From: an uncultured Candidatus Saccharibacteria bacterium
GTDB lineage: Bacteria > Patescibacteriota > Dojkabacteria > B142 > OLB20
Length of the DNA stretch: 64,000 nt
Assembly: GCA_964461915.1 (NCBI GenBank)
Contig: CAYWVD010000001.1
Span: forward strand, 26,211 to 90,210
Reading direction: 5' to 3'
This document shows, piece after piece, positions 5,797 to 26,232 of this stretch (position 1 is its first letter; every line of letters begins with the position of its first letter). The notes beneath the pieces were generated by a model that was not told where the DNA came from, ran no database searches, and saw only the letters and a program-made list of their open reading frames with translations. Position numbers and translations under genes: made by a program.

Positions 5797-5798
5797 AT

Positions 5799-6551: not shown

Positions 6552-6554
6552 TAA

Positions 6555-8595: not shown

Positions 8596-8625
8596 ATTGG
8601 ACAATAATACCAAAGGTCTTCTTAA

Positions 8626-8654
8626 TTGACAAAAATAAGTGCAGTGTTTACACT
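8626..8654 (+). promoter_or_regulatory. Possible internal sigma70-like promoter (TTGACA, 17 nt spacer, TACACT) ahead of the cupin gene
   Basis: TTGACA at 8626-8631 and a weak -10 TACACT at 8649-8654. Found only by eye. Confidence 0.2.
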
Positions 8655-8684
8655 CTTTATAATTATATTTTTAATTTTTACGAG

Positions 8685-9122
8685 ATGGAAAAAATTCAAG
8701 GTGGTTTGGCAGTTGATGATCGCGGGTTATTAAGGTTTGTAAATGGTTTTGATATATCAAAGGTAAAAAGATTTTATCAGGTAGAAAACTTCTCATTAGA
8801 TATGGTCCGGGCCTTTCATGGGCATATGAAGGAGGGAAAATATGTCTATGTTACATCAGGCAGCATATTACTTTGTGTTGTTAAGATGACCGACAAAGTT
8901 AAACCTTCAATAAAAGAACCCGTAGAAAGGATAATACTTTCCGCACGAAATCCACAAATTGTATTTATTCCAGCTGGTCATGCGAATGGTTTTAAGTCTT
9001 TAGAAGAAAATACTAATGTAATATTTTTTTCTACGAGTACTTTAGATGAGTCTAAGGGAGATGATTATAGATTCCCCTTTGATTATTGGGGAAAGGGGGT
9101 TTGGGAGATTGAAAATAGATAA
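8685..9122 (+). CDS. WxcM/FdtA-like cupin (sugar-nucleotide epimerase/isomerase domain, equivalent to the CapF C-terminal domain)
   Basis: 145-aa small beta-barrel protein. Its position between the CapE-like and SDR genes matches the cupin half of the bifunctional CapF/FnlB. Confidence 0.55.
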   Translation: MEKIQGGLAVDDRGLLRFVNGFDISKVKRFYQVENFSLDMVRAFHGHMKEGKYVYVTSGSILLCVVKMTDKVKPSIKEPVERIILSARNPQIVFIPAGHANGFKSLEENTNVIFFSTSTLDESKGDDYRFPFDYWGKGVWEIENR

Positions 9123-9142
9123 ATTTTTATATTAATAAAATA

Positions 9143-10030: not shown

Positions 10031-10043
10031 TATAAAAAATTCA

Positions 10044-11102
10044 ATGGATAAAAAAAAGAATTTAGTTTTAGTTACTGGTGGTGCAGGATATATTGGTACA
10101 CATGTAGTGGAAAAACTTCTTGATAATGGATATAAAGTTAGAATTTTTGATAATTGTATGTTTGGCACAGACCCAATTAAAGACCTTGTAAAAAACAAAA
10201 ATGTAGAATTAATAAAGGCTGATATTGGTGAGCTAGCTAAACTTCTAAAGGCTTTCGAGGGGGTTGAATATGTAGTTCACCTTGCTGGTTTAGTTGGAGA
10301 TCCTGCTTGTTCTGTAAATAAAGAATTAACTTTAAAAAATAATATTATTGCTACTAATGTAGTCAAAGAGCTTGCAAAACATAATAAAGTAAAGAAGTTC
10401 ATATTTGCTTCTTCTTGTTCGGTTTATGGATCTTCTGAAGAAAAAGTTAACGAGAAAAGTAAGTTAAATCCTGTTTCGCTCTATGCACAAACCAAAATTG
10501 ATTCTGAAAAAGCCATATTAGCTGATAAATCAAAAGATTTACACCCTGTCATTTTAAGATTCTCTACTGTCTTTGGACATTCAAGAAGACCGAGGTTTGA
10601 TTTAGTTGTAAATCTTTTCACGGCACAAGCTTATAATGATGGTGTAATTACTGTAAAAGGGAGTAATCAATGGAGACCATTCGTTTATGTCGGGGATTTA
10701 GCTAGAGCAATTTTGAAAGTTATCAAAGCTCCCATTGGCAAGGTAGATAGACAGGTTTTTAATGTAGGAGATGATAAACTTAACTACACCATTGGTAATC
10801 TTGCTAATGTAGTTAAAGATATAGTGATTTTTGATAAAAATAAAATAAAAGTGAAATTAAATATCGATGATAATATTAATGATAAAAGGAATTATTTTGT
10901 ATCATTTAGCAAAATTAAAACGGTATTAAACTTTTCTACTAAAACTTCCTTAGAAGATGGGATTAAAGAAATGGTCAATGCATTTAAAAAGGGAATTTAT
11001 AAAGGCTCTTATAAAGATAAGAAATACAGTAATGTTGAAATGACAAAGCTGTTAAGTGAAAGTGCTTCGAGTGTTGAGAATGTTTATGATCATTTATTGT
11101 AA
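10044..11102 (+). CDS. NAD-dependent epimerase/dehydratase (GalE/WbpP-like extended SDR)
   Basis: VTGGAGYIGTH motif and SxxxxxY..K catalytic region. 352 aa. Confidence 0.75.
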   Translation: MDKKKNLVLVTGGAGYIGTHVVEKLLDNGYKVRIFDNCMFGTDPIKDLVKNKNVELIKADIGELAKLLKAFEGVEYVVHLAGLVGDPACSVNKELTLKNNIIATNVVKELAKHNKVKKFIFASSCSVYGSSEEKVNEKSKLNPVSLYAQTKIDSEKAILADKSKDLHPVILRFSTVFGHSRRPRFDLVVNLFTAQAYNDGVITVKGSNQWRPFVYVGDLARAILKVIKAPIGKVDRQVFNVGDDKLNYTIGNLANVVKDIVIFDKNKIKVKLNIDDNINDKRNYFVSFSKIKTVLNFSTKTSLEDGIKEMVNAFKKGIYKGSYKDKKYSNVEMTKLLSESASSVENVYDHLL

Positions 11103-11181
11103 GTGATTTTTGTCATAAGAATCGGGGATTGCTAAAAAAATAATATGTTAAACACAAATTTTCTGCATAATAAATCTTTAA

Positions 11182-12732
11182 ATGGTGGAATTTAAATTCA
11201 AGAATCTACAAATTGGTGACATTGATATTATTGGAAACAAATTCAATGGACACAATCTACATATTAAACTTAGAGAAAGAGGTATTGATTCAAGCCATTT
11301 GGTTTTATATAAAGAATCTAATGATGAAAATACTTTTTTAATAGGGCAAGATAAGCAAAATCGATATCAATTATCTGAATATTCTAGGACACTAAACAAG
11401 AATTATTATACCCAAAATCTTTTTGGAAATAATGCCTTTGATATTTTATATAGTCATTTATTTTTGGAATCTGACGTTGTGCATTTACACTTACTGCATA
11501 ACATGGAGTTTAATTTACAATTACTCCCAATCTTAAGTCGACTTAAACCAATAGTATGGACTATTCATGACCCCTGGGTAATTAGCGGTCATTGTATACA
11601 CCATTTCAATTGCGATAAATGGAAAAAGGGTTGTGGTGATTGTCCACTCCTTGAAACGTATATACCAATGGCCAAGGACAATACCGCTTTAAATCACGAA
11701 ATTAAAAGATTGGCTATTCAAGATTCTGATATTGATTTTGTGGTTGGTTCAAATTGGATATTTAATAAATTAAAACAATCCGAAATATTTAAGGATAAAA
11801 ATATCCACAAAATCCCCTTTGGAGTTGATAGAAATGTGTTTAAACCTAAAGATAAAAAGTTGATTAGGGATAGTTTGAGTATTCCCAACGATGCCCTTGT
11901 TTTAATTGCAAGATGTCAAAGATCAGAGTTCAAGGGGTTTGATTATGTTGAATATGTAATGGAGAATTTAATAACAGATAAGGAAAAAATTTTGCTAGTA
12001 GTTGATGCAGCTCATGAAAGTTCTTCCTCAAATTATCGATCGATTAATTATGGTTGGGTAGTTGAAGATGAAAAACTTTCGGATCTTTATAATGCATCAG
12101 ATATTTTATTAATGCCCTCTATAGTTGATACCTTTGGGATGATGGCAATTGAAGCCATGAGTTGTGGAGTATTACCTTTAGTATTGGAAGGGACGGCGTT
12201 ACCGGAGGTGATAAACTCTCCAGAATGTGGTGTTGCTAGTAAAAAAGACAAGGTTGAATATCTAAATTTAGTCCAGCATTTTGTTGAAAATCCAAAGGAA
12301 ATTGAAGAAAGAGGTCAAAAATGTTTAAATTATTCAAAATCGAATTATGATTATAATCTATATCTAGACAGAATTATCAATGTATATGAAAATTCTATTA
12401 AACGCCACAAACTTGATAAAAATTCAAAGCATTTATTAAGTCAGTTAAAAAAACATATGAAATCCAAATATGGGATTGAAAACGAAATAAAAAAGGGGAA
12501 TATAAATAGTATACCAAATAAAGGAAATAATAGATTTAAGGATTTAATAAAGAAGTGCCTTAAAAAATTCTTATTCATTTTCCCTTCTTTTAGGAGACTT
12601 GATAGGGTTGAAAAAGAGACTGCCGTAGTTAGTAATAAAATAGACAATCTAAACAAAAAAATTGACAATTTGATAATTAATGAAAAAAATGAGTATTTGG
12701 AGATGAGAAATAATTTTAAGAAAAATGATTAG
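11182..12732 (+). CDS. GT4-family glycosyltransferase with a C-terminal coiled-coil extension
   Basis: GT-B C-domain motif (EAMSCGVLPLV). The last roughly 100 aa are K/E/N-rich heptad-like (NKIDNLNKKIDNLIINEKNEY). Confidence 0.75.
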   Translation: MVEFKFKNLQIGDIDIIGNKFNGHNLHIKLRERGIDSSHLVLYKESNDENTFLIGQDKQNRYQLSEYSRTLNKNYYTQNLFGNNAFDILYSHLFLESDVVHLHLLHNMEFNLQLLPILSRLKPIVWTIHDPWVISGHCIHHFNCDKWKKGCGDCPLLETYIPMAKDNTALNHEIKRLAIQDSDIDFVVGSNWIFNKLKQSEIFKDKNIHKIPFGVDRNVFKPKDKKLIRDSLSIPNDALVLIARCQRSEFKGFDYVEYVMENLITDKEKILLVVDAAHESSSSNYRSINYGWVVEDEKLSDLYNASDILLMPSIVDTFGMMAIEAMSCGVLPLVLEGTALPEVINSPECGVASKKDKVEYLNLVQHFVENPKEIEERGQKCLNYSKSNYDYNLYLDRIINVYENSIKRHKLDKNSKHLLSQLKKHMKSKYGIENEIKKGNINSIPNKGNNRFKDLIKKCLKKFLFIFPSFRRLDRVEKETAVVSNKIDNLNKKIDNLIINEKNEYLEMRNNFKKND

Positions 12733-12735
12733 CAC

Positions 12736-14637
12736 ATGCAAAAAAATATTAAAAAAAACGCTTTAGTTAGTATTGTGATCCCTGTTTATAATGGGGAGGA
12801 TTATATTAAAGAAGCTATTATAAGTGCCCTTAATCAAACATATAAAAATATTGAAATACTAGTTGTTAACGACGGATCAACAGACAAAACTGAAAGTATT
12901 ATTAAAAGTTTTGGAAATAGAGTAAGGTATTTTAGAAAAGAAAATGGTGGTGTAGCAACGGCATTAAATTTTGCTATCGATAAAGCAAATGGTGAATATA
13001 TTTCATGGCTATCTCATGATGATTTATATTATCCTAATAAAATTGAGAGACAAATTGCTGAGCTACAACAATTATCATATTTAGAAAGTATTAATACTAT
13101 AGTTTTTTCTAATTTTGATATTCTTGATCAAGATGAAAATAAGAAAAGTCTAGTTAAGCCAATTGAGCATTTTTCTAATGAAAACCCTCAATATTTAAAT
13201 GTGATGTTAAAAACCTTTTTCAATTCTTGGCTTAATGGGTGTACATTGCTTTTCCCTAAAATTATATTTAAAAAATTTGGAGATTTTGACATCAATCTTA
13301 GAACAGTACAGGATTACCATCTATTTATTAAATTTTTTAAAAAAGGGGTTAGGTTTCATTATTTAAAAGATACATTGGTTACATCAAGACATCATGGTGG
13401 TCAGGATACAAGGAAATTAATCGATAAGCATATTGTTGAGTTAAATTATTTGTATAAATATGCTTTCGATGAATTTAAGAAATATTTCCAATCTCTTCCA
13501 TTTTGGGAATTTGATTGTTTTTTAAACATTATAAAAACTCGTCGGCTAGATCATGTATATGCACATATGCTTAGCGAATGGGCAAATGTTGGAGTGGAAT
13601 CGGACAAAGAAACTATCTGGCTGTATTGGGAAAATAAGCCAAAACAATCAACCCCTGATTATATAAGATTATGCTGGAAAACTCTTGTAAAAAATAATCG
13701 TGGAGATTTTAACATTAAAATACTTACGGATAATAATATTGCCGAATACTTGCCCGAAATAAACCATATTGATTTGCTTAAAGAAATTGCGCATAAGGCG
13801 GATTATATTAGATTCGCATTATTAAATAAATATGGAGGGATATGGTTAGATAGTGATTTTATTTGTTTTAGGAGTTTAATAGAAATAAAATCAATTATAA
13901 AAAATAACAATTTCATTACTTCTGGCTATAAACATAATACCAATAAATTTTTCCCACTTATCGGCTTCTTATCTTGTAATAAAGATAATTCAATTTGTAA
14001 AAAAGTTTTAACCCAAATGGACTTATTCATCAAAAAGATTGATATAAATGATGAACAACCGGAGTGGGATGAATTTGGTGGATGGAATCTTTCAAAGGTA
14101 TTAGAAGAGAAGAGTACAAACACTCATAACTTTGATATTAAATATTTTGATCCATTTGGTGTTTATAAAGATGACAATAATAGTTATTTTAGTACACGAT
14201 GTATTAATATATTAGAAGTATTAGATAATCAATTTAGATTTGCATTTGGTCAATATTTAGCAAATAGTGTATTAAATGCGGATATTAAAGGGCGTTCAGA
14301 GCATGAAATTTTAACGAGGGGAGATAATTTAGGGGAACTCTTTAGATTAGGACTTGGGTTTATATATTATCCAAATATAAGTAATATTCAAACCCATGAA
14401 AAAAGCATTATAGGAAAAGAAAGTGGCATCCGGGTTAATTTAAAACGAGTTATTATCAGGATCTTAAATATTTTACCCCACTATAGGAAATTAAAACAAA
14501 TTGAAATTGAATCACAAGATAATCAGCACAAATTAAATATCTTAGACAATAAGCTAGTTGAATACATAGAAAATAAAAGGAAAGTGTATGAATCTATAAA
14601 TTCCTTTATGAAAGAAGAGAATCCCAAGCAGAAATAG
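12736..14637 (+). CDS. Bifunctional glycosyltransferase: N-terminal GT2 domain plus C-terminal GT32-like 'sugar-binding DXD' (Gly_transf_sug/Caps_synth) domain
   Basis: N-terminus SIVIPVYNGE..VLVVNDGSTD. C-terminal half ADYIRFALLNKYGGIWLDSDFICF (DXD). 633 aa. Confidence 0.7.
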   Translation: MQKNIKKNALVSIVIPVYNGEDYIKEAIISALNQTYKNIEILVVNDGSTDKTESIIKSFGNRVRYFRKENGGVATALNFAIDKANGEYISWLSHDDLYYPNKIERQIAELQQLSYLESINTIVFSNFDILDQDENKKSLVKPIEHFSNENPQYLNVMLKTFFNSWLNGCTLLFPKIIFKKFGDFDINLRTVQDYHLFIKFFKKGVRFHYLKDTLVTSRHHGGQDTRKLIDKHIVELNYLYKYAFDEFKKYFQSLPFWEFDCFLNIIKTRRLDHVYAHMLSEWANVGVESDKETIWLYWENKPKQSTPDYIRLCWKTLVKNNRGDFNIKILTDNNIAEYLPEINHIDLLKEIAHKADYIRFALLNKYGGIWLDSDFICFRSLIEIKSIIKNNNFITSGYKHNTNKFFPLIGFLSCNKDNSICKKVLTQMDLFIKKIDINDEQPEWDEFGGWNLSKVLEEKSTNTHNFDIKYFDPFGVYKDDNNSYFSTRCINILEVLDNQFRFAFGQYLANSVLNADIKGRSEHEILTRGDNLGELFRLGLGFIYYPNISNIQTHEKSIIGKESGIRVNLKRVIIRILNILPHYRKLKQIEIESQDNQHKLNILDNKLVEYIENKRKVYESINSFMKEENPKQK

Positions 14638-14672
14638 AGAATTAATAATTTAATTTTATTCATAAATTAATA

Positions 14673-15794
14673 ATGAAAGTCTTAACAATCCTAGGCACTA
14701 GACCAGATATAATAAAATTGGCTATGACCATTAAAGAATTAGAAAAACACGTAGAACATGTTTTAGTTCATACTGGTCAAAACTATGATTATGAATTAAA
14801 TGAAGTTTTTTTTAAGGATTTAGAGCTCAGGAAGCCAGATCATTTCCTTGGTGTCGCGGGTGATAATTTCGCACAAACAATTGCCAATGTTATTGAAAAA
14901 TCCGATCAAATACTTGAGATAGAAAAACCTGATGCTATTTTAGTCTATGGTGATACAAATAGTTCACTGTGTGTGATACCTGCCAAAAGAAGGCATATCC
15001 CAATTTTCCACATGGAGGCAGGTAATAGGTGTTTTGACCTTAGGGTACCAGAAGAAATTAACAGGAAAATCGTTGATCATACAAGTGATATAAACATGGT
15101 CCTTACCGAACACGCGAGAAGATATTTAATTGCAGAAGGTATTAGACCCGAAACAATTATCAAAACCGGTTCATCTATGATGGAATTGTTTGAAAAATAT
15201 AAAGATCAAATTGAAAATTCAAAGATTCTAAATGACATAAACTTAGAATCAAAGAAATATTTTGTTGTTAGTGCACATAGAGAAGAAAATATAGATTACC
15301 CGGAGAATTTTTCAAAATTAATTAACTCGATTAATAAAATAGCTGAGAAATACCAACTCCCTATTATCTTTTCTACGCATCCACGGACAAGAAAGAAAAT
15401 TGAAGAGACTAAAGACTTACAGCTAAATAAACTAGTGCAATTTCACAAACCTTTTGGGTTTTTCGATTACATTAAACTTCAAAAGGAATCTTTATGTGTA
15501 ATAAGTGATAGCGGAACAATTTCTGAAGAATCATCTATTCTATCTTTTCCTGCGATCACTATACGGAATGCTCATGAAAGACCTGAGGGGATGGATGAGG
15601 GGACTTTAATTATGTCTGGACTTGACGAACAAAGTGTACTAGATGCTATAAATGTTACGATTAATCAATATAAAGAAGAAACAACGCCTTTTAATATTAT
15701 AGCGGATTATAATGTTAAAAATGTTTCTAAAAAAGTCGTTAAGATTATTATGAGTTATACAGGGTATGTTAATAGAGTAACATGGCGAAAGTAA
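14673..15794 (+). CDS. UDP-N-acetylglucosamine 2-epimerase, non-hydrolysing (CapG/FnlC/WecB family)
   Basis: ILGTRPDIIKLA...HTGQNYDYELNEVFFKDLELRKPD, near-canonical for the CapG/FnlC subgroup. 373 aa. Confidence 0.9.
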   Translation: MKVLTILGTRPDIIKLAMTIKELEKHVEHVLVHTGQNYDYELNEVFFKDLELRKPDHFLGVAGDNFAQTIANVIEKSDQILEIEKPDAILVYGDTNSSLCVIPAKRRHIPIFHMEAGNRCFDLRVPEEINRKIVDHTSDINMVLTEHARRYLIAEGIRPETIIKTGSSMMELFEKYKDQIENSKILNDINLESKKYFVVSAHREENIDYPENFSKLINSINKIAEKYQLPIIFSTHPRTRKKIEETKDLQLNKLVQFHKPFGFFDYIKLQKESLCVISDSGTISEESSILSFPAITIRNAHERPEGMDEGTLIMSGLDEQSVLDAINVTINQYKEETTPFNIIADYNVKNVSKKVVKIIMSYTGYVNRVTWRK

Positions 15795-16912
15795 TTGAAG
15801 GAGTAAAAAGCAGAGATAAAAAAATTGATCTGTTACTTGCCCTAGGAATAATAATGGTAGTAATGGGTCATAAATATCAGCCGACATATTTTTATTTCCC
15901 TGCATACACTTTCCATATTCCTTTATTCTTTTTTATATCCGGATATTTAGCAAAAGTTAATTTAAATATTAAAGATAAGATCGCTTTTTTTATAAAAAAA
16001 GCTAAAATCTTATTATTGCCTTACTTCGTATTGAATATGTTTTTTGCAATCATTACATATCTTTTATCAACCAAAAGTATTAATTTAGGTGTTGTTTTAA
16101 AGTTTGACAGCATAAATGCCATTATTGAATCGTTAAAAACCTTTTTTATTCAACCCTTTATTTCTGGTAATCAATTTTCCCTTTTTATCCCTGCTTGGTT
16201 TGTTTTACAACTATTTATTGTACATATTGTTTTTCAATTATTGCACCTCAAAAATAAATATTGGTTATTATTTGTTTATATAGCCTGTACTATATCTACA
16301 GTCTTTTTATTAGAGAGGGGGTTAAATTCTTATACTGATTATCACCTATTAATAATAAGAACTGGTTATAGTTTATTTTTCTTTTTGAGTGGGTATATTT
16401 TAAAGAGGTTCGGTAAAGTATTAGAAAAAATTGTTTATTCTGAAGTTTTTTTAATTATCGCATTTATTCTTGTAATACAATTAATTAATACAGGTGGAGT
16501 TACTCAATATGCAATAGTTTTTGGAAATATTTTAAATGAAAAAGTAATAATCCCGCTATTGAATTCACTGTTAATTATATTAATTTCTTTTAATCTTGCA
16601 AACGTATTGGCAAAAGTTATAAGTGATAAATCAATATTCCTTAAAATTGGCCAACACACCTTTAGTATAATGGTTTGGCACTTAAGTGTTTTTTTTATAA
16701 TTAACCTTGTTATATATAAATTGGGCTTAATAGATGGGGCAAGTTTAGATAATGTGTATTTTGGATACAATATATCGCAAATATGGCCTATTTATATTTT
16801 TTTAGGGATATTTATACCTATAAAATTATCTTCAATTTATAATATTTTTATTAATAAATTTAAGTATAGTTTAAAAGGGAATAAGTTCATTAAAAATTTA
16901 TTAAAACAATAA
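15782..16912 (+). CDS. Acyltransferase family 3 membrane protein (putative glycan O-acetyltransferase)
   Basis: 376-aa, roughly 10-TM protein with an N-terminal ...MGHK...FFFISGY pattern typical of Acyl_transf_3. Confidence 0.65.
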   Translation: MAKVIEGVKSRDKKIDLLLALGIIMVVMGHKYQPTYFYFPAYTFHIPLFFFISGYLAKVNLNIKDKIAFFIKKAKILLLPYFVLNMFFAIITYLLSTKSINLGVVLKFDSINAIIESLKTFFIQPFISGNQFSLFIPAWFVLQLFIVHIVFQLLHLKNKYWLLFVYIACTISTVFLLERGLNSYTDYHLLIIRTGYSLFFFLSGYILKRFGKVLEKIVYSEVFLIIAFILVIQLINTGGVTQYAIVFGNILNEKVIIPLLNSLLIILISFNLANVLAKVISDKSIFLKIGQHTFSIMVWHLSVFFIINLVIYKLGLIDGASLDNVYFGYNISQIWPIYIFLGIFIPIKLSSIYNIFINKFKYSLKGNKFIKNLLKQ

Positions 16913-16956
16913 TACATGTTTAAATTATTTTGACAGTTATTTCTTTGAATTAAAAA

Positions 16957-18081
16957 ATGTCCAATAATCCTAAAATCTCAGTAATTATGCCTGTATATAA
17001 TGACGAAAATTATGTCTCGTTGGCAATCAATTCTATTTTAGAGCAAAGTTTTCAGGATTATGAGTTAATAATCATAGATGATGGTTCAACGGATAATTCC
17101 TTAAAAGTTATTAAATCATACAAAGATCCGAGAATTAGGGTTATCAAAAACAAGATTAATCAAAAACTCCCGACGACCTTAAATACTGGTATAGAAGTGG
17201 CTAAGGGTGAGTATATCGCACGGATGGATGCAAATGATATTAGCTATAAAAATAGATTTGCATTGCAGATAGAATTCATGGAAAAACACACAGACATTGG
17301 TGTGTGTGGGACAAATTTTAGAACTGTTGAGGAATCAGGGAATGTACTTTGGGATAAATTTTGGAAGAAATCGGACCACCCTTTAGAATGGGATTTGTTA
17401 TGGGAAAATCCAATAGGTCACACAACTGTGATGTTAAGGAAGAGTATTATTGATAAATATAATTTTAGATATAGAAAAATATATGCCGAAGATGGTGACC
17501 TTTGGTGTAGAATGGCGACTCGAACTAGGCTGGGTAGAATCAATAAAGTTTTAATGGATGTTTTGATACAAAAAGATTCCGAATCAGTAAATAACAGAAA
17601 GCTCCATATGGCACAGGCTATCAAATCTAGTTTTACTTATGCTAAATGGTTAACCGAAAAACCCGTTCCTGATTTTTATAACAATTTCTTAATTTATTCT
17701 AAAGTGATTGGTAAAAATAATATCCCCATACCTAATAATAATACCGTCCAAGAATGGTTTTGGGATTTAGAACACTCAATTATTAGTAAATTCAATCTAT
17801 CTGATAAAGATAAAATCTTTATTAAAAAAGATATTCTTAAAAGAAATGTTGAATATTTTGAAGATCAAATTTTAAAGATAAAAGAACAAATTAATTTAAA
17901 AGATCAGAAAATAAATTCAGAAAACGACTATTATATTGCACTAAACAATGAAATCCAAAATAATTATAACTTGCTTAAAAGTAATTATGATAACCTAAAA
18001 AGTGGCTATGATGCATTATTAGATTCAAGATCATATAAAATAGCTAAAAAAATGAGAGATTTATATAGGATTTTTAAATAA
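16957..18081 (+). CDS. Family 2 glycosyltransferase with a C-terminal coiled-coil tail
   Basis: VIMPVYNDE..IIIDDGSTD..DAND GT-A motifs. C-terminal roughly 90 aa K/N/E-rich, predicted coiled coil. Confidence 0.8.
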   Translation: MSNNPKISVIMPVYNDENYVSLAINSILEQSFQDYELIIIDDGSTDNSLKVIKSYKDPRIRVIKNKINQKLPTTLNTGIEVAKGEYIARMDANDISYKNRFALQIEFMEKHTDIGVCGTNFRTVEESGNVLWDKFWKKSDHPLEWDLLWENPIGHTTVMLRKSIIDKYNFRYRKIYAEDGDLWCRMATRTRLGRINKVLMDVLIQKDSESVNNRKLHMAQAIKSSFTYAKWLTEKPVPDFYNNFLIYSKVIGKNNIPIPNNNTVQEWFWDLEHSIISKFNLSDKDKIFIKKDILKRNVEYFEDQILKIKEQINLKDQKINSENDYYIALNNEIQNNYNLLKSNYDNLKSGYDALLDSRSYKIAKKMRDLYRIFK

Positions 18082-18086
18082 AACTA

Positions 18087-18887
18087 ATGAGTATATTTAA
18101 AAAGATTTTAAATTTAATTGGTAATAAGAATAATTCTGGAAAAGATTATACCCTAGCTGTTTTTATTGTTAACTATAATATGTCTGAAAGGACAGATGCA
18201 TTAGTCGAACATCTAAAAGAATACGAGACTTGGCCTATGGATGTTTATGTGATTGATAACGGTTCTGATATTCAAAAACCTTCAAAATATACTAATGTCT
18301 TTATTAAAAAAAACATTCAAACATGCAACGGTTGGCTTAAAGGTTTGTCTGTTGCTAAAAAGTCTAAGAAGAAATATTTTGCATATATGTTTTTAATTAC
18401 ATCTGCCGAATTTGAGAATAAAGCAGAACAATTAACACTGATGATGAAGTATTTAATTGAAAATAAGAATGCTGTAGGGATCCACCCCTCTCTTTCAAAA
18501 TCTAGTACTACATATTGGAAGCACTTAATTAATAGGGGGAAAGCACATCCAAGAAAGACTTGGATGATTGATAATATTGCTTCAATTTTTAAAGCAAATT
18601 GGTTTGATAGTATCGGTGGGTTTGACAAACGAATGATTTATGCATGGGGGATAGATTTAGAGGTATCTTATATTTCCCGTAAACAAGGTAAAGATATTTA
18701 TGTTGATGACAGGGTTGAGGTTACAAAAATAACAAATATTGGATATAAAATGAACAGGATGAATATGTTAGCTGAGGACAGAGTAAAATTAGCTTCAGAT
18801 AATATGGAAGAAATCTTAACTATGAAGTATGGAAAAGATTATATGAAAATTATGCTTAACGATTATGTAACAGATGAAATGAAATAG
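18087..18887 (+). CDS. Hypothetical protein, possibly a divergent GT2-like (WbbL-type) glycosyltransferase
   Basis: The VFIVNYN...VIDNGSD arrangement resembles GT2 'xVTYN' rhamnosyltransferase-like proteins. Weak evidence. Confidence 0.35.
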   Translation: MSIFKKILNLIGNKNNSGKDYTLAVFIVNYNMSERTDALVEHLKEYETWPMDVYVIDNGSDIQKPSKYTNVFIKKNIQTCNGWLKGLSVAKKSKKKYFAYMFLITSAEFENKAEQLTLMMKYLIENKNAVGIHPSLSKSSTTYWKHLINRGKAHPRKTWMIDNIASIFKANWFDSIGGFDKRMIYAWGIDLEVSYISRKQGKDIYVDDRVEVTKITNIGYKMNRMNMLAEDRVKLASDNMEEILTMKYGKDYMKIMLNDYVTDEMK

Positions 18888-19592
18888 TTAAATTATTTGT
18901 TCAAGTCCCCCTACAAGAAATTCAGGATCATATCTATCAAATTGCGAATATCTTTTTTTATATCTATTTTTCAGATTTAATACATTTGCTCTAAATTCTG
19001 AATGAACCTTGTTAAAATTTCCAATAACTTTTTCATCATTAAAAACGAGTTTTGCATCTTCAATACTTAAATTAGTCTGTTGTGAATTTTCAAACCAGTA
19101 TGTTCTTTTGCTAATGGGGAAAGTTATTAACAATAAGCCACCTGGCTTTAAAAATTCCACACTTTTTTTATAAAGTTTTTCAATCATATTTTTTTGATTA
19201 TGTTCTATAGCAGATAACCAATAGATAATATCAACACTTTTGGGAGTGAACTTATCAAAATCTAAAAATTCAACAAAATAATCAGCATTCGTCACTCCTT
19301 CTTGGTGGCAATATCCTGTAGGTCGATCTAAACCGATAATTTTTATGCCTAATCTTTCTTCAACTGCAGAATGAAAGGGAGAATTACCGCAACCAATATC
19401 AAATATTATTGGGTCTTTAAGTTTATTTTTTTCTAAATATTTTTTCATTTTTGAATATAGCCAAACATGGTCAATGACATAATTCCAGCCAATCCAACAG
19501 TTTATATCTAAGTAATCCATCCCTTTTGTTTTAAAATATGCAATTAGTTCTTTATCTTTTGCAATATCTTTTGGATTGATTATTGTTATCAT
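18888..19592 (-). CDS. Class I SAM-dependent methyltransferase (probable sugar/glycan O-methyltransferase)
   Basis: Motif I IFDIGCGNSPF and motif post-I/II LKPGGLLLITFP. Convergent to the glycan operon. Confidence 0.65.
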   Translation of the reverse strand: MITIINPKDIAKDKELIAYFKTKGMDYLDINCWIGWNYVIDHVWLYSKMKKYLEKNKLKDPIIFDIGCGNSPFHSAVEERLGIKIIGLDRPTGYCHQEGVTNADYFVEFLDFDKFTPKSVDIIYWLSAIEHNQKNMIEKLYKKSVEFLKPGGLLLITFPISKRTYWFENSQQTNLSIEDAKLVFNDEKVIGNFNKVHSEFRANVLNLKNRYKKRYSQFDRYDPEFLVGGLEQII

Positions 19593-19609
19593 AAATTTTA
19601 AAAAATTTG

Positions 19610-20266
19610 TTAAATTAGTTTTTTTACTATTTCAAGATCGTTAGGCCAATCTATATCAATTGATTCGTATTCATCCATAATAAAAATATTAGGTTTTACT
19701 CCTATTCTAGCTTTTGTTTTTTCAAAGCTCGATTTTGAAAAAATATATATGCAAGAATTTTCTACATACAATGGATCTAAGTCCTGTGTCCTGATAAGTT
19801 TTTGAGGATCGTGATTAATAGGCTTAAGATTTTTATCGAAGAACCTTTTTTGATATGCATTTACGCTAAAAATTGAATCAAAACCTTTTTTAACAGATTC
19901 AAAATATTCCTTACAAGCATTTTCAAAAGTACTCAGTGTTACTAGTGGATTAGTTGCATGTGTTTGTAGAATTACGTCTTCTTCTATATCATCTAAACTT
20001 GAGTCAATAACATCATTCATTGATACAAAATCACCAATTACATTAGGATCCCTTTTTATCACTTTAACTAAGTTATTATTTTTGTAGTAATCAATGATTT
20101 TTTTACTATCAGTATTAACATAGATTTTACTAATTATTTTCGACTTGATTAAACGATCAATAAGGATGTTGTGTAATGGCTTGCCATTAATTAGTAAAAA
20201 ATTTTTATTAGGTACTCTTTCCGAATGTTCTTTAATAGGAATAAACACGGCAATATTTCTCAACAT
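19610..20266 (-). CDS. Acylneuraminate/CMP-sugar cytidylyltransferase family protein (CTP_transf_3)
   Basis: N-terminal IPIKEHSERVPNKN resembles the IPAR.GS.R.P.KN signature of NeuA/PseF/KdsB-type cytidylyltransferases. 218 aa. Confidence 0.6.
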   Translation of the reverse strand: MLRNIAVFIPIKEHSERVPNKNFLLINGKPLHNILIDRLIKSKIISKIYVNTDSKKIIDYYKNNNLVKVIKRDPNVIGDFVSMNDVIDSSLDDIEEDVILQTHATNPLVTLSTFENACKEYFESVKKGFDSIFSVNAYQKRFFDKNLKPINHDPQKLIRTQDLDPLYVENSCIYIFSKSSFEKTKARIGVKPNIFIMDEYESIDIDWPNDLEIVKKLI

Positions 20267-20323: not shown

Positions 20324-23300
20324 TTAATGAAAAACATACATATTAATTTGGTTATTACCACGATCTAACATTGTAGCAAGGTCATCTAAATTGTCATTAT
20401 TAAAATCTCCTTGGACTAATCTCGGAGATCTAGTGGCATCCCAAGCAGACCTTGTAAAGAATCTTGATGCTACGAATGAATTATAATTATGGTTTTCATA
20501 TATTAAAACTCCCATGATTGAACCTCCATAATTGTATATAGTACCGATATCGCTTTTCAAATCCCCATTGAAATCTCCAGAAACTAATTGAGGAGATCTA
20601 GTGGCATCCCAAGAATATGAAGTGAAATATACTCTCCCAGTGAATGTTCTGTCCTGATTGTTGTCGAAAGAGATTAATCTCATTGCAGAACCGCCATAGT
20701 TGTACATTGTCCCAATGTCTTGATAGGTATCACCGTTAAAATCACCAGCTACTAATTGAGGAGATCTAGTGGCATCCCAAGCGTATGAGGTGAAATATGC
20801 TCTTCCTGTAAAGGTATCATCGCCATTATTCTCAAAGACCAATAACCTCATAGCTGATCCACCATAGTTGTACATAGTACCGATATCAATCCTCGTGTCA
20901 TTATTAAAGTCGCCAGAAATCAATTGAGGAGATCTTGTAGCATCCCAAGAATACGAAGTGAAATATGGTACTGCTGTAAAAGTACTATCTCCATTATTCT
21001 CAAAAACTAACAACCTCATAGCAGAACCACCATAGTTATACATTGTAGCGATATCAACTCTTTGGTCTCCATTAAAATCTCCAGAAACTAATTGTAAAGA
21101 TCTACTGGCATCCCAAGCTAGTGAAGTGAAGTAAGATACTGCGGTGAATGTATTGTCGCCATTATTTTCAAAGACAAGAAGTCTCATAGCGTTATTACCG
21201 TAGTTGTACATAGTAGCAACATCATCCACACCATCACTATTAAAGTCACCAGAAACTAACTGAGGAGATCTAGATGCATCCCATGAACTTGATGTGAAAG
21301 CTTCAATCTCTGAGAATGTAGTTCTTGGTAAAGATAAATACTCAAAACATTTAGAACATATAGATTCGTTATTGTTTGGATTGACATATTTAACATCAAC
21401 TATTCCTGTAGATGATGACGGAAGTTTTACTTCAACCGAGTTTTCACTTAAATATGTTATTCGAGTAGCTTGAGTATTTCCAAAATATATCTTTCCAGAT
21501 GTCTGTAGGTTATTACCTGATATTAATATTGAATCGCCACCAGTCTTATAGGCTGAGGTAGGAAAAATTTCAATTATTTGAGGTGTATCGTTATTACCAA
21601 TACTTTCAAATATATCGATGATACCATGCCCAGTATATATGTCATAACCAACATCTTTTGTATCGTTTGCATAGATATATAATCTATCTAAAATCTCTTG
21701 ATAAGACATTGTGGAATCAAAGCTTAACATCAAGGCCGCCTGTGCACTCACCTGAGGCGCAGCAAAGCTGGTTCCATAACCCATCATATAATTCCCGTTT
21801 ATAAGGAAAGATGTTGTTAGATCATCGTCTTGACCGCATCCATCATCATAGGTTCCTGGACCATTAACATCAGCAAAACAGCTGAATGTGGCTGCACCAA
21901 CGCCGGTTTCACCGTTTGAGCTACCAACAGGGGCGACAACGTCAAGTTCGGGGCCAAAGTTTGAGTAGTTGGCTTTATCTGTGCCGGCGTAGTTTGAGGC
22001 GCCGACGGCGATTACATTGTCGAGTGAGGCGGGGAAGAAAACAGCACCGTTGTTGTTGCCAGAGGCTCCGACTAGGACTATGCCTGCATTATGTGCTTCA
22101 TTAATTTTGGCTTCAAATAGGGGATCTCCCTCGTTGTAACCTCCAAAACTCATATTTATAACGTCGGCGCCATAATTTATGGCGTGGTCGAGTCCATTGA
22201 TAATGATCGAATCGTAGGTTGCACCTTTGTCATCACCCATCCAATCAATTTTTGGTAAAAAGATTTTTACTGGCATGATTTTGACAGTTGGTGCTATTCC
22301 TAGAATGTTATTTGGTGCATCACTATCGATTTGGGATGCTATGATTGATGTGACAAAAGTCCCATGTCCATCGTCATCATTTGCATGATTGATTTTTTCT
22401 AGTTCTGTAGCATTACAGGGATAACCTTGTCCGGCCCAAATATCGCACATAAACTCCCATGAAGGATCGTATCCATTTACAAAAGTTGTACTCTGTAAAT
22501 CTGAAATCACTCTATACGATCTATCAAATGCATCTTCTAAAGAATCCAAAGTATAAGTCTCATAAGCAACTCCTGTATCAAGAACCGCAACAGTTACATC
22601 TGCCGACCCTGTATGGCTGGCGGGAGTTGTGTTATTGAATAAATAATACCAAACTTCAGGAGCATTGATTTGTTCTAGATTCCAGTGGATTGAGTTGTTG
22701 TAATCGGCTGGAATTGAGCGACCATTAACCGGATCTTCTGTCCAGACAGCTTTTTGATATTTATAGTTTGGCTGAATTACAGCTTCTGGAGCCACAAGCT
22801 TAAGTTCGCGGATAGCTTGGTTCAATTGACTGGCTTCGAGTGTATACATAATGTAATCAGATTCTTCGGTGGTCTTGGCGAATCTTGAGGGGGGATTTCG
22901 AAGCTTGGTCTTGAGTTCTGGTGATAAATTATCGATATTCATTAAAATATTAGTTTCGAGTAAATCGGGATTGGCTCGGTTTGATCCGGTAAAGTATTCT
23001 TTTCCATCAACTAAAGAATTAATTGAGGCGATTTTATTATTTATTTCGGTGTTAGTTTGCTTTACAAGTCGGGCGTTATTAGCAATTGCGTCCATTAATG
23101 GATAGAAAGTATTACCCGGGCATGCCGTCTGACCAATATCTTTGTGGCCATATACACCTCCTGGGTTGTTACCATCGAATGAGGTTTTGTGAGTTAAATC
23201 AATATTATTAACCGCTGATAAATATGCCATCAATCGAATTAATGAATTTGTCGAAGCTTGTGTAGGTTGCTGATTTGTATAATTGCCAAGGATTGAAATC

Positions 23301-24193
23301 CCGATACTGCCCTCATTTGGTGGAGCATGGTTGCCTCTAACTCCATTGATTCCGGCTCTTCCTTCGTAGATGTTTCCATATGGGTCTATCAAGTAGTTAT
23401 ATCCAAAGTCTCCCCAATCGTTATCTATTGCGTGGTAACGCCAGATTGCTTTGACTGTGTTTACTGGATTAATCATATCGACTCCACCTGCTGTGTGATG
23501 AATTACGATTCTGTTTACTGGATAATATGGAGGAGTCCAGCCTGGTGCAAAGGTGCTATCTGCTGGTAAGCCCATATCTGCCCTTGTGATTATATTTAAA
23601 CCTGCTTGCTGGAAAAATCGTGTTTTGTAAACTGTGTTTGGGTCGGTTGAAATTGCTGTAAGTTTTTTAATAGAATCTAATCCTTGATCTTTTGATTCAA
23701 AATCATAATAAGAGATCTCAAAATTTCTTTCACCTTCGTAATAGAAGTCGATTTTTTTTATTCCGGCACTAAACAAATATTGTTCGGATAGGCCTTTAGT
23801 GGTTGGGTTCCCATCTCTATCTACTTGATCCTCGTTTACATTTAAAACATATTTATCGCTAACGCTATCATCAGATTTTGTGACTACAAAAGAAATCCCC
23901 TTTAGATCATCATTACTCTGCGCTTTCAATGTAAAGCCATACATTGCTTTTTCCGGCTGTAATGTTTTAGCAACGGATTCAACCACATTTAATTTTGATA
24001 TTTCAGTAGAATCAACGGCAACACTTTCAGCCTTAGGGTAAAATTCAGGCTCGCTCAATGCATCAGAACCAATCTTTTCAATATTTTGAAGATATTCATC
24101 ATTGCTTTTTTCGGCTTTCGAACCAGTTAGGGCAAATAAGAAAAGAAGAGAGGAGACAAAAATAGATAAAGAAATAAGTAGGGTCTTTTTCAT
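20324..24193 (-). CDS. Large secreted multidomain protein: signal peptide, PGRP-type N-acetylmuramoyl-L-alanine amidase (Amidase_2), subtilisin-like S8 peptidase, IPT/TIG, and six tandem FG-GAP-like repeats
   Basis: Signal peptide MKKTLLISLSIFVSSLLFLFALTGS. Amidase_2 Zn-site pattern IHHTAG...YGHKDIGQTACPG (about aa 222-365). S8 triad VLDTGV (D539), HGTFV (H610), GTSFAAPQVS (S808). C-terminal 6 x 56-aa repeats with a GDFN(G/N)D signature. 1289 aa. Confidence 0.85.
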   Translation of the reverse strand: MKKTLLISLSIFVSSLLFLFALTGSKAEKSNDEYLQNIEKIGSDALSEPEFYPKAESVAVDSTEISKLNVVESVAKTLQPEKAMYGFTLKAQSNDDLKGISFVVTKSDDSVSDKYVLNVNEDQVDRDGNPTTKGLSEQYLFSAGIKKIDFYYEGERNFEISYYDFESKDQGLDSIKKLTAISTDPNTVYKTRFFQQAGLNIITRADMGLPADSTFAPGWTPPYYPVNRIVIHHTAGGVDMINPVNTVKAIWRYHAIDNDWGDFGYNYLIDPYGNIYEGRAGINGVRGNHAPPNEGSIGISILGNYTNQQPTQASTNSLIRLMAYLSAVNNIDLTHKTSFDGNNPGGVYGHKDIGQTACPGNTFYPLMDAIANNARLVKQTNTEINNKIASINSLVDGKEYFTGSNRANPDLLETNILMNIDNLSPELKTKLRNPPSRFAKTTEESDYIMYTLEASQLNQAIRELKLVAPEAVIQPNYKYQKAVWTEDPVNGRSIPADYNNSIHWNLEQINAPEVWYYLFNNTTPASHTGSADVTVAVLDTGVAYETYTLDSLEDAFDRSYRVISDLQSTTFVNGYDPSWEFMCDIWAGQGYPCNATELEKINHANDDDGHGTFVTSIIASQIDSDAPNNILGIAPTVKIMPVKIFLPKIDWMGDDKGATYDSIIINGLDHAINYGADVINMSFGGYNEGDPLFEAKINEAHNAGIVLVGASGNNNGAVFFPASLDNVIAVGASNYAGTDKANYSNFGPELDVVAPVGSSNGETGVGAATFSCFADVNGPGTYDDGCGQDDDLTTSFLINGNYMMGYGTSFAAPQVSAQAALMLSFDSTMSYQEILDRLYIYANDTKDVGYDIYTGHGIIDIFESIGNNDTPQIIEIFPTSAYKTGGDSILISGNNLQTSGKIYFGNTQATRITYLSENSVEVKLPSSSTGIVDVKYVNPNNNESICSKCFEYLSLPRTTFSEIEAFTSSSWDASRSPQLVSGDFNSDGVDDVATMYNYGNNAMRLLVFENNGDNTFTAVSYFTSLAWDASRSLQLVSGDFNGDQRVDIATMYNYGGSAMRLLVFENNGDSTFTAVPYFTSYSWDATRSPQLISGDFNNDTRIDIGTMYNYGGSAMRLLVFENNGDDTFTGRAYFTSYAWDATRSPQLVAGDFNGDTYQDIGTMYNYGGSAMRLISFDNNQDRTFTGRVYFTSYSWDATRSPQLVSGDFNGDLKSDIGTIYNYGGSIMGVLIYENHNYNSFVASRFFTRSAWDATRSPRLVQGDFNNDNLDDLATMLDRGNNQINMYVFH
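20327..21298 (-). repeat. Six tandem about 168-bp coding repeats (one truncated), highly similar at the nucleotide level, encoding FG-GAP/VCBS-like beta-propeller blades
   Basis: The motif ggagatctagtggcatcccaag recurs at about 20418, 20590, 20760, 20928, 21098 and 21268, with period 168-170 nt, in frame within the large CDS. Confidence 0.85.
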
Positions 24194-24456
24194 TTAAGGC
24201 AATAAAAAGTTACAAATATATTGTATAGAATTCATCTATATTTGCAAAAAAAAACTTTTGGAATCTTCTTGACATAGCCTTAAATTTAATCTAACTTATA
24301 TTTGATAACTTTTTTACTGCGAGGAAGTTTATCAAGTCTGAATGTTTATTTAGTTGATAATCTTTAGACTTTAAAGCCAATGTGCGATTTTGTTCTTCGC
24401 TCTATTGGCTTTTTTTATATATTTTTCGCGTTGTTTTTACAAGCTCATTTTGCACT

Positions 24457-25035
24457 ATGGACTGTAAAAAATTTAATAATCTTCGTTTAATAACCGCTTT
24501 AACTTTATTCGTTTTGCTAATCAACTTTATTTCAATTGCGATCTTTATAAGGCCAGTTGAAGCTGATAACTTCCACGAAATTAGGATGGATATTGAGAAT
24601 TCGATTCAAGGACAAAAAACGGGAAAGCTTAAAATTTCCTTTATTCCTCAAAGTTCGGAGATTTTTAATAAAGGGATTTTGATCACTATTCCTGATGGAT
24701 TCAGCGATCTAAGCCTGAATAGCTCGGACTTTAAATTCTTTGTGAATGGGAAGCCTCTTATTGGATCAATTAATAGTTATGATCCATTTGTGGGGCAAAT
24801 TGAATATATAATTGAAGATCAAGGCATTAAGGATATTGATAGTCCTGAAATTTCGTTTGAGATAGATTCTGAAATGACGAATCCGATTTCTCCAAAGGAA
24901 TATTCTTTTAATGTTCAGATCTTTGATCTGGGTGAGGACAAGCTTTTTGGTGGATCTCAAGACATTTTAAAGGAAAACGGATCCGTTAAAGTGGACATCA
25001 TTAAAAACGATCTAGTTCTTCTTCCTGAATATTAA
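24457..25035 (+). CDS. Hypothetical membrane-anchored or secreted protein
   Basis: The ORF track begins at 24382. The more plausible start is the ATG at 24457, giving MDCKKFNNLRLITALTLFVLLINFISIAIFIRPVEA as a signal anchor. No recognisable domain. Confidence 0.4.
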   Translation: MDCKKFNNLRLITALTLFVLLINFISIAIFIRPVEADNFHEIRMDIENSIQGQKTGKLKISFIPQSSEIFNKGILITIPDGFSDLSLNSSDFKFFVNGKPLIGSINSYDPFVGQIEYIIEDQGIKDIDSPEISFEIDSEMTNPISPKEYSFNVQIFDLGEDKLFGGSQDILKENGSVKVDIIKNDLVLLPEY

Positions 25036-26232
25036 CTTCCCGATATGTAAATAGTAAAGATAGGCCATTAGTATGGTGTACACTCCTGCAATGATCCTTG
25101 AACTTAGGAATGGATTGTTTAGATGGTCGATAGGTAAGATCATTAGCACTTTTTCAAGATTCAAGAAATATATTAGCGATAATGCAATATATATGATCGG
25201 TTTTTTCTTAATGAATGCATAAGTAAAGATGAATAACATCGCTGGGTGAATATATCTTTCATGCATCTGAGTATTAAAAAAGAAAAAGTTGAAAAACAAA
25301 AGTCCTACAGTTAAACAGATGCTTGCGAAATCAGATTTTGTAAAAGTTGATGTCTTTTCCTTGATCATTTCCTTAATTACTTTAACGGATGGAATCAACG
25401 CTACAATGCTTGAAAGCCCAAAGGCGATGAACCCGATATTCCTTGCAGTGATCCCTAGATATGTAACATTGTCAGTCAACCATCTTGCCCCGGGCCCGGA
25501 GATCAAATACCAAGTATTGAATGCCTGAAGCGAAAGATAAGGAAAGAATCCAACTTGAGATGTTGCCACACTAATAATATCCCCGAGCTTATTCGTAAAG
25601 ATAAATGGAACAAAGATTACAAATTGAAGAATCAGAGCAGAGAATAGGATCTTTAAGATGAGTTTTGGAAGCTTGTAAATAAATGGTAGCAATAAAATTA
25701 GCAAGACCGGAGCAAATACAATTGATTGTAATTTAAAGTTCAAAGCCAGAATAAATGCCAGGACTGCAAAAGTGGGCTTCTCTTTTAGAATCAAAAAAGC
25801 CGATAAAAAAATGAAAAAACTATGGATTGCATCCACCTGACCCCAAAATAGGGTGTTATAAAAATAGCCAATATTTAAAAAAAGGAATAGTGGATTGATT
25901 ATTTTGATCTTAAAGTGCTTCAAACTCAAGTTAAGCAAGATCAAACCCCCAAAATCGAAGATCAGTGTAAAGATCTTCAATAGATGGATATTATCCAGAA
26001 CATCAGCAGTAGTTGCAAAAAGAGATTGAAAAAAATCCAAGAAATATATGTAAAGAGGGAAATAGTTAACATCTTTATGATCGTAAATATTCAAAAGCCC
26101 GCCTTCCCTAAGATGAATAAGCCAGTCCCCAAAGGTAAGCTCATCCCAGATGTAAAAGGATTGGGGTAAAACTATTACAAACAGTGCAAAAGCAATACAT
26201 ACAAAAAATATTATTGTTTTGTTTTTATTCAT
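25012..26232 (-). CDS. Polytopic membrane protein, putative GT-C type glycosyltransferase
   Basis: 406 aa with many TM helices, plus an N-terminal periplasmic-loop acidic motif (YIWDELTFGDW) reminiscent of the GT-C DxD/ExD loop. Family not resolved. Confidence 0.45.
   Translation of the reverse strand: MNKNKTIIFFVCIAFALFVIVLPQSFYIWDELTFGDWLIHLREGGLLNIYDHKDVNYFPLYIYFLDFFQSLFATTADVLDNIHLLKIFTLIFDFGGLILLNLSLKHFKIKIINPLFLFLNIGYFYNTLFWGQVDAIHSFFIFLSAFLILKEKPTFAVLAFILALNFKLQSIVFAPVLLILLLPFIYKLPKLILKILFSALILQFVIFVPFIFTNKLGDIISVATSQVGFFPYLSLQAFNTWYLISGPGARWLTDNVTYLGITARNIGFIAFGLSSIVALIPSVKVIKEMIKEKTSTFTKSDFASICLTVGLLFFNFFFFNTQMHERYIHPAMLFIFTYAFIKKKPIIYIALSLIYFLNLEKVLMILPIDHLNNPFLSSRIIAGVYTILMAYLYYLHIGKLIFRKKN

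Follow-up and report, generated by a model that had tools for sequence, protein, structure and literature searches.

Introduction

Among the described wall-lytic systems, the staphylococcal precursor Atl (AtlE) comes close in design to the protein treated here. It is exported as one chain holding two wall-active enzymes together with a wall-targeting repeat module, and it is cut extracellularly into separate enzymes. The bacteria known as candidate phyla radiation (CPR; Patescibacteria) account for a large part of bacterial diversity, and how they build and remodel their envelope, divide and make contact with a host is almost unknown. In this work we analyze a 64,000-nucleotide (nt) stretch of contig CAYWVD010000001.1 (referred to as the window), from a bacterium of the Dojkabacteria lineage. 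An open reading frame (ORF) located at 20324..24193 on its minus strand encodes 1289 amino acids (aa) comprising an amidase, a subtilase, a TIG domain and a C-terminal six-bladed propeller. The gene borders a surface glycopolymer locus, and between close relatives the C-terminal module has been exchanged together with that locus. The explanation that we favor, and on which our confidence is evenly poised, is that the protein is a lectin-targeted, self-processing, autolysin-like hydrolase matched to the wall glycopolymer of the cell that makes it.

The comparison with Atl is one of analogy. Cleavage of the precursor into separate enzymes is established for Atl and predicted for the Dojkabacteria protein, which would be cut by its own protease at an internal pro-domain. 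Atl has a glucosaminidase and GW or SH3b-like repeats, whereas the Dojkabacteria protein has a subtilase and a six-bladed propeller, and the two are without sequence relationship outside the amidase. As Pfam finds neither a glucosaminidase nor a GW domain in it, membership in the Atl-type bifunctional autolysins was rejected. The wall-binding domains of Listeria phage endolysins and the choline-binding LytA of pneumococci read strain-specific teichoic acids; unlike in these enzymes, the targeting module of the Dojkabacteria protein belongs physically to the variable glycan island, together with which it is exchanged. Catalytic peptidoglycan recognition proteins (PGRPs; amphioxus PGRP3, Drosophila PGRP-LB) and Amidase_2 endolysins (LysCS, T7 lysozyme) share with the Dojkabacteria amidase the fold, the His-His-Cys zinc site and the Tyr, but they are single- or two-domain proteins, none of them fused to a protease.

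A functional pairing of an S8 protease with a peptidoglycan hydrolase zymogen exists in the Csp/SleC system. The partners act there in spore germination as separate proteins, whereas both enzymes are fused in the Dojkabacteria protein; SleC is not an Amidase_2 enzyme, and the pro-domain can remain bound after cleavage, as may also be the case here. In clostridia, Csp subtilases activate the cortex-lytic pro-SleC (cited in PMC2605481, reference B46). Fervidolysin-type pre-pro-subtilases (1r6v; PF22148 followed by PF00082) carry, as the Dojkabacteria protein is predicted to, a pro-domain with a QPNYxY end directly before S8, and in both cases beta-sandwich domains stand behind S8. In the Dojkabacteria protein, by contrast, the predicted pro-domain is internal. 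It lies behind about 400 residues that include the amidase, with its intact active site, so that processing would release a second enzyme, not a small propeptide.

The propeller leads to a further system. PDB entry 9oee shows UmbA4 of Streptomyces coelicolor, a lectin spoke of the umbrella toxin particles, in complex with teichuronic acid, a wall glycopolymer which the C-terminal six-bladed propeller of UmbA4 recognizes as a lectin; in its blades the calcium-binding loops are conserved, whereas the sugar pockets diverge (PMC13274773). The Dojkabacteria propeller is homologous to it and shares its GDFNGDG-type calcium-loop repeats, and in both proteins a serine-protease-fold domain is combined with the lectin. 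They differ in that UmbA4 carries a trypsin-like domain together with a bulb lectin, has neither S8 nor amidase, belongs to an UmbA/B/C particle with a polymorphic toxin, and aims at other species, whereas the linkage seen in Dojkabacteria points to the producer's own glycan. An umbrella toxin particle was rejected for the protein studied here: it has no trypsin domain, and its neighbors are glycan-synthesis and housekeeping genes, with no UmbB- or UmbC-like gene seen among them.

Results

The ORF runs uninterrupted from an ATG start to a stop codon, and an exact-sequence look-up of the 1289-aa protein returned no database record. Above curated cut-offs, Pfam recovers Amidase_2 (PF01510) at aa 224-361 (23111..23524, on the minus strand like all domains of the protein; E 7.6e-20, 72 bits against a cut-off of 26), Peptidase_S8 (PF00082) at aa 532-851 (21641..22600; E 2.3e-40, 139 bits against a cut-off of 21.8), TIG at aa 871-943 (21365..21583; E 1.2e-10) and FG-GAP_3/FG-GAP from aa 978 onward (E 2.7e-16). 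In the amidase, H232, H350 and C358 (the zinc ligands), Y265 (catalytic) and T356 are all unvaried across 21 homologues. The motif IHHTAG contains H232/H233, and YGHKDIGQTACPG contains H350, T356 and C358. The three ligands and the Tyr align with those of catalytic PGRP3; their equivalents in T7 lysozyme are H17, H122, C130 and Y46, and the Thr at the position of T7 Lys128 follows the PGRP type. The subtilase triad stands in the order Asp-His-Ser (D539 in VLDTGV, H610 in HGTFV and S809 in GTSFAAP) and is, together with the oxyanion N713, unvaried in the full-length proteins of the same set. Neither active site varies, which means that both enzymes are under selection.

Two AlphaFold2 models were examined. 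That of aa 28-530 (22 sequences; mean predicted local distance difference test (pLDDT) 79, predicted template modeling score (pTM) 0.80) shows a beta-sandwich at about aa 76-163 (23705..23968), conserved in the family and without Pfam assignment, followed by the amidase, by two long helices (aa 364-395; 23009..23104) which would join it to the pro-domain, and by a beta-alpha-beta-beta-alpha-beta unit at about aa 412-475. When aa 28-222 were scanned in isolation with Pfam at E up to 10, nothing other than sub-threshold noise was obtained. The model of aa 440-1289 (mean pLDDT 77, pTM 0.56) begins with a low-confidence junction at aa 482-525, followed by the S8 domain, into which several loops are inserted, the TIG (IPT/TIG) beta-sandwich, presumably a spacer, and the six-blade propeller. 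Structure comparison of the modeled amidase shows resemblance to catalytic PGRPs, endolysins, AmiA of Staphylococcus aureus Atl and pneumococcal LytA.

The profile score, the zinc and Tyr residues and the predicted fold agree in identifying a PGRP/T7-lysozyme-type zinc N-acetylmuramoyl-L-alanine amidase, and the S8 profile, the Asp-His-Ser order and the oxyanion Asn in identifying a subtilase. We hold the biochemical identity of the protein to be highly probable. A non-catalytic, PGRP-like binder is ruled out by the invariant zinc ligands and catalytic Tyr. Narrower subtilase assignments were also discarded: against the type VII secretion mycosin model (TIGR03921) the protein scores 136.4 bits, with an equivalog cut-off of 278.75, which reflects general S8 similarity only, and scores against the QhpE, PatA and dentilisin models of NCBIfam are far under their cut-offs.

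The sole hydrophobic segment of the protein, 19-20 residues long and preceded by MKK, lies at aa 4-23, and full-length homologues have the same kind of N-terminus; for these reasons, export by Sec is very likely. The signal predicted from hydrophobicity (aa 1-27; 24113..24193) ends at a possible cleavage site between SKA and EK. Alternatively, the hydrophobic segment may anchor the protein in the membrane.

The C-terminal module (aa 957-1289; 20327..21325) consists of six repeats, with GDFN motifs at residues 982, 1038, 1094, 1150, 1206 and 1262, that is, spaced exactly 56 residues apart. At the DNA level, Tandem Repeats Finder reports a 168-nt period at 20520-21299 (4.6 copies, 73% matches). 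The repeats are 38-80% identical pairwise (mean 60%), and a D-x-N-x-D-x-x-x-D loop is kept in six of the six blades. In the AlphaFold2 model they form six four-stranded blades (pLDDT about 90), and an N-terminal strand at about aa 962-968 closes the last of them. A single PDB chain matches the propeller by sequence, and this is UmbA4 (9oee_A; phmmer E 3e-25, in two stretches that cover the propeller). UmbA4 is also the top Foldseek match of the aa 440-1289 model. By sequence homology, blade number and calcium loops, the module belongs to the six-bladed UmbA-type lectin class ('6BP', PMC13274773), and we predict that it binds a wall glycopolymer.

Propellers of this kind are not restricted to Dojkabacteria. 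A search with the propeller alone found it fused to NlpC/P60, M23, CHAP, Amidase_2, YkuD, GH24 lysozyme and glucosaminidase domains, and to trypsin-like partners too, in Clostridium, Hathewaya, Fictibacillus, Streptomyces, Saccharimonadia and others. Because it is joined to hydrolases in so many bacteria, it can be considered a recurrent targeting module of peptidoglycan hydrolases. A literature search on FG-GAP and wall binding found no treatment of the propeller as the wall-binding module of hydrolases, and these recurring fusions suggest that such a module has been largely overlooked.

An earlier note on this DNA, made from the sequence alone, had described a single ORF with an N-terminal export signal, Amidase_2 and S8 motifs, an IPT/TIG segment and six near-identical 56-aa repeats expected to form a six-blade propeller. 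The results above bear out this description, to which they add the minus strand, except in one respect: the repeats are indeed six, spaced by 56 residues and marked by GDFN, but their identities are too low for them to be called near-identical. Its view of the propeller as a binding module was right as to type and too general, the module being a six-bladed lectin type as in UmbA4.

Evidence pointing to the glycan of the producing cell as the target comes from three close pairs of family members, whose cores align without gaps at 80-99% identity. In the pair P0002/P0004 the proteins are 90% identical, without gaps, over residues 1-871, and then show no similarity at all, one C-terminus being an FG-GAP propeller and the other an unassigned repeat. 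Their DNA shares one 10.5-kb block of 84% identity, which comes from NusA and UvrD upstream and ends within the gene at about codon 824; the glycan loci downstream have no detectable shared DNA and differ in gene content. In the pair P0001/P0003 the core is 80-93% identical and identity falls to 30-39% after about aa 1000, with a shared block of 4.5 kb (84%) that ends at about codon 991. The corresponding values for P0005/P0006 are 90-97%, 19-46% after about aa 1000, and a 5.2-kb block (88%) ending at about codon 963. Both of these pairs have collinear upstream flanks and different downstream glycan loci. Hence, in three of three close pairs the breakpoint lies inside the gene, at the boundary of core and module, with the reading frame intact, and the module is exchanged with the locus. 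This makes the targeting module part of the variable glycan island.

The unassigned C-terminus of P0004 (aa about 870-1313; L091, about 12600-13942) is itself built of internal repeats of the form IYNGTNP...NGR.Y..IP.IH.GPV.IE, without Pfam assignment, and is a candidate for an undescribed glycan-binding repeat.

In the window, the hydrolase gene is followed, after 57 nt, by a cytidylyltransferase gene (CTP_transf_3; 19610-20266, minus strand) and, after a further 17 nt, by a methyltransferase gene (18888-19592, minus strand), behind which lies an ABC-transporter-type surface glycopolymer locus of about 15 kb (3951..18887, plus strand). The locus encodes sugar epimerases and dehydratases, Polysacc_synt_2, RmlD-like and Epimerase_2 proteins, an ABC-2 permease with its ATPase, GT2 and GT4 glycosyltransferases and Acyl_transf_3. 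The earlier placement of the gene after a surface-glycan locus is in line with this map. No terminator-like site was found between the ORF and the cytidylyltransferase gene, in a window where promoter and terminator counts overall are at shuffle level. The window is densely coded. GC content is about 0.29-0.31 in the glycan locus and 0.333 in the whole window. Within the gene, GC at third codon positions (GC3) is 0.17 in TIG, 0.29 in the propeller, about 0.34-0.36 in the catalytic core and 0.27 in the N-terminal domain; as the N-terminal domain is low too, GC and GC3 were dismissed as marks of an island boundary inside the gene. Over the interval 8000..20266, which covers the glycan locus and both genes that follow the ORF, GC drops to 0.27-0.30, consistent with a horizontally exchanged island.

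The association extends to the relatives. Of 12 loci examined, 11 (the window, P0001 to P0006, P0010, P0011, P0012 and P0021) have the gene next to or within a glycan locus, and in L006 and L088 it lies within the glycan operon and shares its strand. The upstream flanks differ among distant members, so that adjacency is more than an inherited position. A particular sugar gene may also go with the propeller: an adjacent UDP-GlcNAc 2-epimerase gene is present in 5 of 8 loci with an FG-GAP module and in none of the 4 without it, a weak trend given that the loci are not independent (hand-calculated one-sided Fisher p about 0.07).

We turn now to the region between the two enzymes. The beta-alpha-beta-beta-alpha-beta unit of the AlphaFold2 model stands directly before S8, where subtilases carry their pro-domain, and ends in a conserved QPNYKY; the region assigned to it from the model and from profiles covers aa 412-481, approximately (22751..22960). 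The junction that follows, at aa 482-525, appears disordered. A profile of the family linker was searched against 1.84 billion representative sequences. Its best matches were about 32 proteins of the fusion family (1000-1500 aa, E below 1e-27, matched at residues 320-690 or so), and the next ones ordinary S8 pre-pro-enzymes of 600-1100 aa, matched at residues ~60-240, which correspond to the propeptide and the mature N-terminus. In 4 of 10 such enzymes Pfam identifies the matched propeptide as the Fervidolysin N-terminal prodomain (Fervidolysin_NPro-like, PF22148), and the pro-domains end there in VQPNYKY, VQPNYIY, AQPNFRY or AEPNYVG, the same motif as QPNYKY. An hhalign comparison limited to the pro-domain gave a probability of 78% (E 1.9e-5). 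Foldseek aligned the model with unprocessed pro-subtilisin E (3whi_B) across 439 columns, compared with some 363 in the case of mature subtilisins, and structure comparison of the unit named fervidolysin and POIA1 as relatives.

Some results weigh against this assignment. A Pfam scan of the isolated linker (aa 366-530) at E up to 10 gave neither I9 nor PF22148; hhalign against the propeptide of subtilisin BPN' aligned the mature N-terminus only, as did a PDB profile search with the linker; and the fold of the unit is the generic ferredoxin-like one. With all this considered, we assign the unit, with moderate confidence, to the subtilase pro-domains. At the same moderate level, the 1289-aa protein is probably a polyprotein that cuts itself in two, for which aa 482-525 would be the self-cleavage site. 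Canonical subtilase maturation would, given the position of the pro-domain between the enzymes, separate an amidase-bearing fragment from a protease-TIG-propeller fragment. As regards self-processing in itself, we incline towards it without strong conviction.

The fusion family comprises about 32 clusters at 50% identity among the 1.84 billion representatives, and every member that bears an organism name belongs to Candidatus Dojkabacteria (including WS6). The same was seen when one genome per species was scanned: the named genomes in which the match extends past the amidase into S8 are all Dojkabacteria, to which a single 'uncultured bacterium' is added. The BipA/TypA protein of the window has a 99% identical match in metagenome contigs, and its matches with an organism name are nearly all Candidatus Dojkabacteria, with one Doudnabacteria; the window thus comes from a CPR bacterium of the Dojkabacteria class. 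Among 38 members assembled, S8 is present in 38, Amidase_2 in 35, FG-GAP in 15, TIG in 7, DUF5648 in 6, H_lectin in 2 and a dockerin in 1. The two-enzyme core is thus constant and the C-terminal module varies. Members are labeled at NCBI only as 'S8 family serine peptidase', and no paper describing the fusion was found in the literature on Dojkabacteria, on Patescibacteria peptidoglycan hydrolases or on FG-GAP wall binding. The protein is built from familiar parts. Its architecture was called unusual in the earlier note, which raised the question whether the fusion is restricted to CPR or episymbiont lineages; it is confined to one lineage and undescribed. What is new here is the predicted internal pro-domain, the recognition of the propeller as a lectin type and its exchange along with the glycan locus.

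Two observations made outside this family concern the same enzymes. In a metagenome-assembled genome of Acidimicrobiia (JBDIBA010000047.1; L087, 5645..10915), a GT4 glycosyltransferase, an S8 protease (640 aa) and an Amidase_2 protein (627 aa) are encoded by adjacent, separate genes; here, in an unrelated phylum, both enzymes are paired without fusion beside a glycan gene. In Peregrinibacteria, Gracilibacteria and further CPR lineages, it is very common for large secreted proteins to join Amidase_2 to SpoIID and N_BRCA1_IG domains (P0023-P0120), which looks like another lineage-specific way to build a large amidase for export.

Discussion

The explanation that we favor can be laid out as a series of steps. 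The protein would leave the cell through Sec by means of its N-terminal signal or anchor. As subtilase biology suggests, the S8 domain would fold on the pro-domain lying just upstream and would then cut the flexible junction after QPNYKY. Of the two products, the N-terminal one would contain the beta-sandwich, the amidase and the pro-domain, and the C-terminal one the protease, TIG and the propeller; they may stay associated through the pro-domain. The propeller would bind the wall glycopolymer made by the adjacent locus, as homology to UmbA4 and the joint exchange indicate, and the zinc amidase, with its predicted activity, would take stem peptides off N-acetylmuramic acid. The protease may mature or limit the amidase, in a way comparable to that of Csp and pro-SleC, or may trim wall peptides and proteins. 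The outcome would be wall remodeling or daughter-cell separation, limited to walls with the matching glycopolymer. The earlier note had taken the protein for a single polypeptide that combines both enzymes. This is the case for the ORF; the chain itself, with a predicted pro-domain between the enzymes, is probably cut in two.

That the lectin targets the wall of its producer we regard as balanced between yes and no. An own-wall target is favored over a host because the C-terminal module was exchanged with the cell's own adjacent glycan locus in three pairs, and for the same reason, of the two roles considered in the earlier note, attack on a host or prey wall and processing of the own envelope, the latter is preferred. 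Several points weigh against self-targeting and the scheme built on it. UmbA4, the solved relative of the propeller, recognizes the wall of other species. The joint exchange could be passive, in that a hypervariable island uses the conserved catalytic core as its anchor for recombination, and the diversification of an exposed domain could have other reasons. The locus of P0016 is without an adjoining glycan locus. Furthermore, if the chain is cut, the amidase is parted from the lectin unless the pro-domain holds the fragments together.

An extension of the favored explanation, which we advance tentatively and with more doubt than belief, is that the glycopolymer and the hydrolase-targeting domain form a matched pair in each strain, inherited and exchanged as one cassette, with the pro-domain making the enzyme a self-timed zymogen. 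If true, the amidase would be released only after the protease matures, and autolysis or kin-specific lysis would be under a key-and-lock control. We know of no described autolysin that works by a matched glycopolymer/targeting cassette and a self-timed zymogen.

The main competitor is a lytic enzyme directed at a host or prey, or a nutrient scavenger. Here the lectin would dock on a host glycopolymer, and the amidase and the protease would open or digest the wall and free peptides that a small-genome cell cannot make. UmbA4 is used in interbacterial antagonism, against non-self teichuronic acid (PMC13274773). Strongly varying C-terminal modules swapped between near-identical cores recall the receptor-binding domains of weapons, and the protein evolves much faster than housekeeping genes: P0010 is only 41% identical to the window protein, though the BipA proteins of the two genomes are 83% identical. 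General knowledge and reviews add that CPR bacteria are generally host-dependent. However, the exchange of the module with the cell's own glycan locus, in three of three pairs, is a linkage for which a host lectin offers no obvious reason. The gene is part of a same-strand glycan operon in L006 and L088 and precedes the glycan genes in the window, and its catalytic core is conserved across the class as that of a housekeeping function would be. We consider a host-directed role unlikely.

Still less probable, in our opinion, is that the S8 protease is the main effector and serves surface assembly, maturing or shedding an S-layer, pili or adhesins, while the amidase would only open local gaps in the wall or act as an anchor and the propeller would position the complex on the glycan coat. 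The domain counts agree with such a role, with S8 in 38 of 38 members and Amidase_2 in 35 of 38, and so do amidase-free S8 relatives with the same C-terminal modules (S8+DUF5648, S8+FG-GAP), the second S8 gene that adjoins the homologue in L090, the cohesin-domain protein upstream in L001 and L091, and the dockerin of P0020. An invariant zinc site and catalytic Tyr would nevertheless be unexpected in a mere anchor, some of the members without an Amidase_2 match may be truncated gene calls, and no substrate candidate was identified.

Passive hitch-hiking, by which a general secreted hydrolase would have its conserved 5' part act as recombination flank of the glycan island and its 3' module replaced by accident, is the least probable of all: glycan islands bounded by conserved genes are common, as O-antigen and capsule loci generally illustrate, and the glycan locus is lower in GC than the window, but the breakpoint falls at the boundary of catalytic core and targeting module in three of three pairs with the frame intact, adjacency is kept in distant members with different upstream flanks, and the replaced modules are lectin-type domains.

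For the study of CPR envelopes, the family offers a testable handle: the enzyme is conserved, very likely exported and intact in both active sites, it has a predicted self-cleavage site, and its lectin module appears to be matched genetically to a glycan locus. Should the lectin read the polymer of its own cell, sequence-based typing of Dojkabacteria surface glycans would become feasible, as would strain-specific labeling probes for these unculturable organisms.

Other features of the window and of related loci

Directly upstream of the hydrolase gene, the window contains an ORF of 217 aa (24382..25035, plus strand) with a GTG start and one of 406 aa (25012..26232, minus strand), which looks hydrophobic and possibly spans the membrane. 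Both are without Pfam match, and their ends overlap by 24 nt. In the corresponding upstream region, L090 and L093 have a PMT_2-type glycosyltransferase. The hydrolase gene had been taken for the largest of the window, which it is not: a class I tRNA synthetase (46210..50193, plus strand; tRNA-synt_1, Anticodon_1, DUF5915) has 1327 aa, an unusual length for its class that suggests a large insertion.

In L090, a second large S8 protein (12431..15721; 1096 aa, with a Fervidolysin_NPro-like pro-domain) is encoded directly downstream of P0006 and before the glycan genes. Both L001 (2905..3600) and L091 (4888..5580) encode a conserved cohesin-domain protein a few genes upstream of the hydrolase, and the family member P0020 ends in a dockerin; taken together, they hint at a cohesin-dockerin surface assembly in Dojkabacteria.

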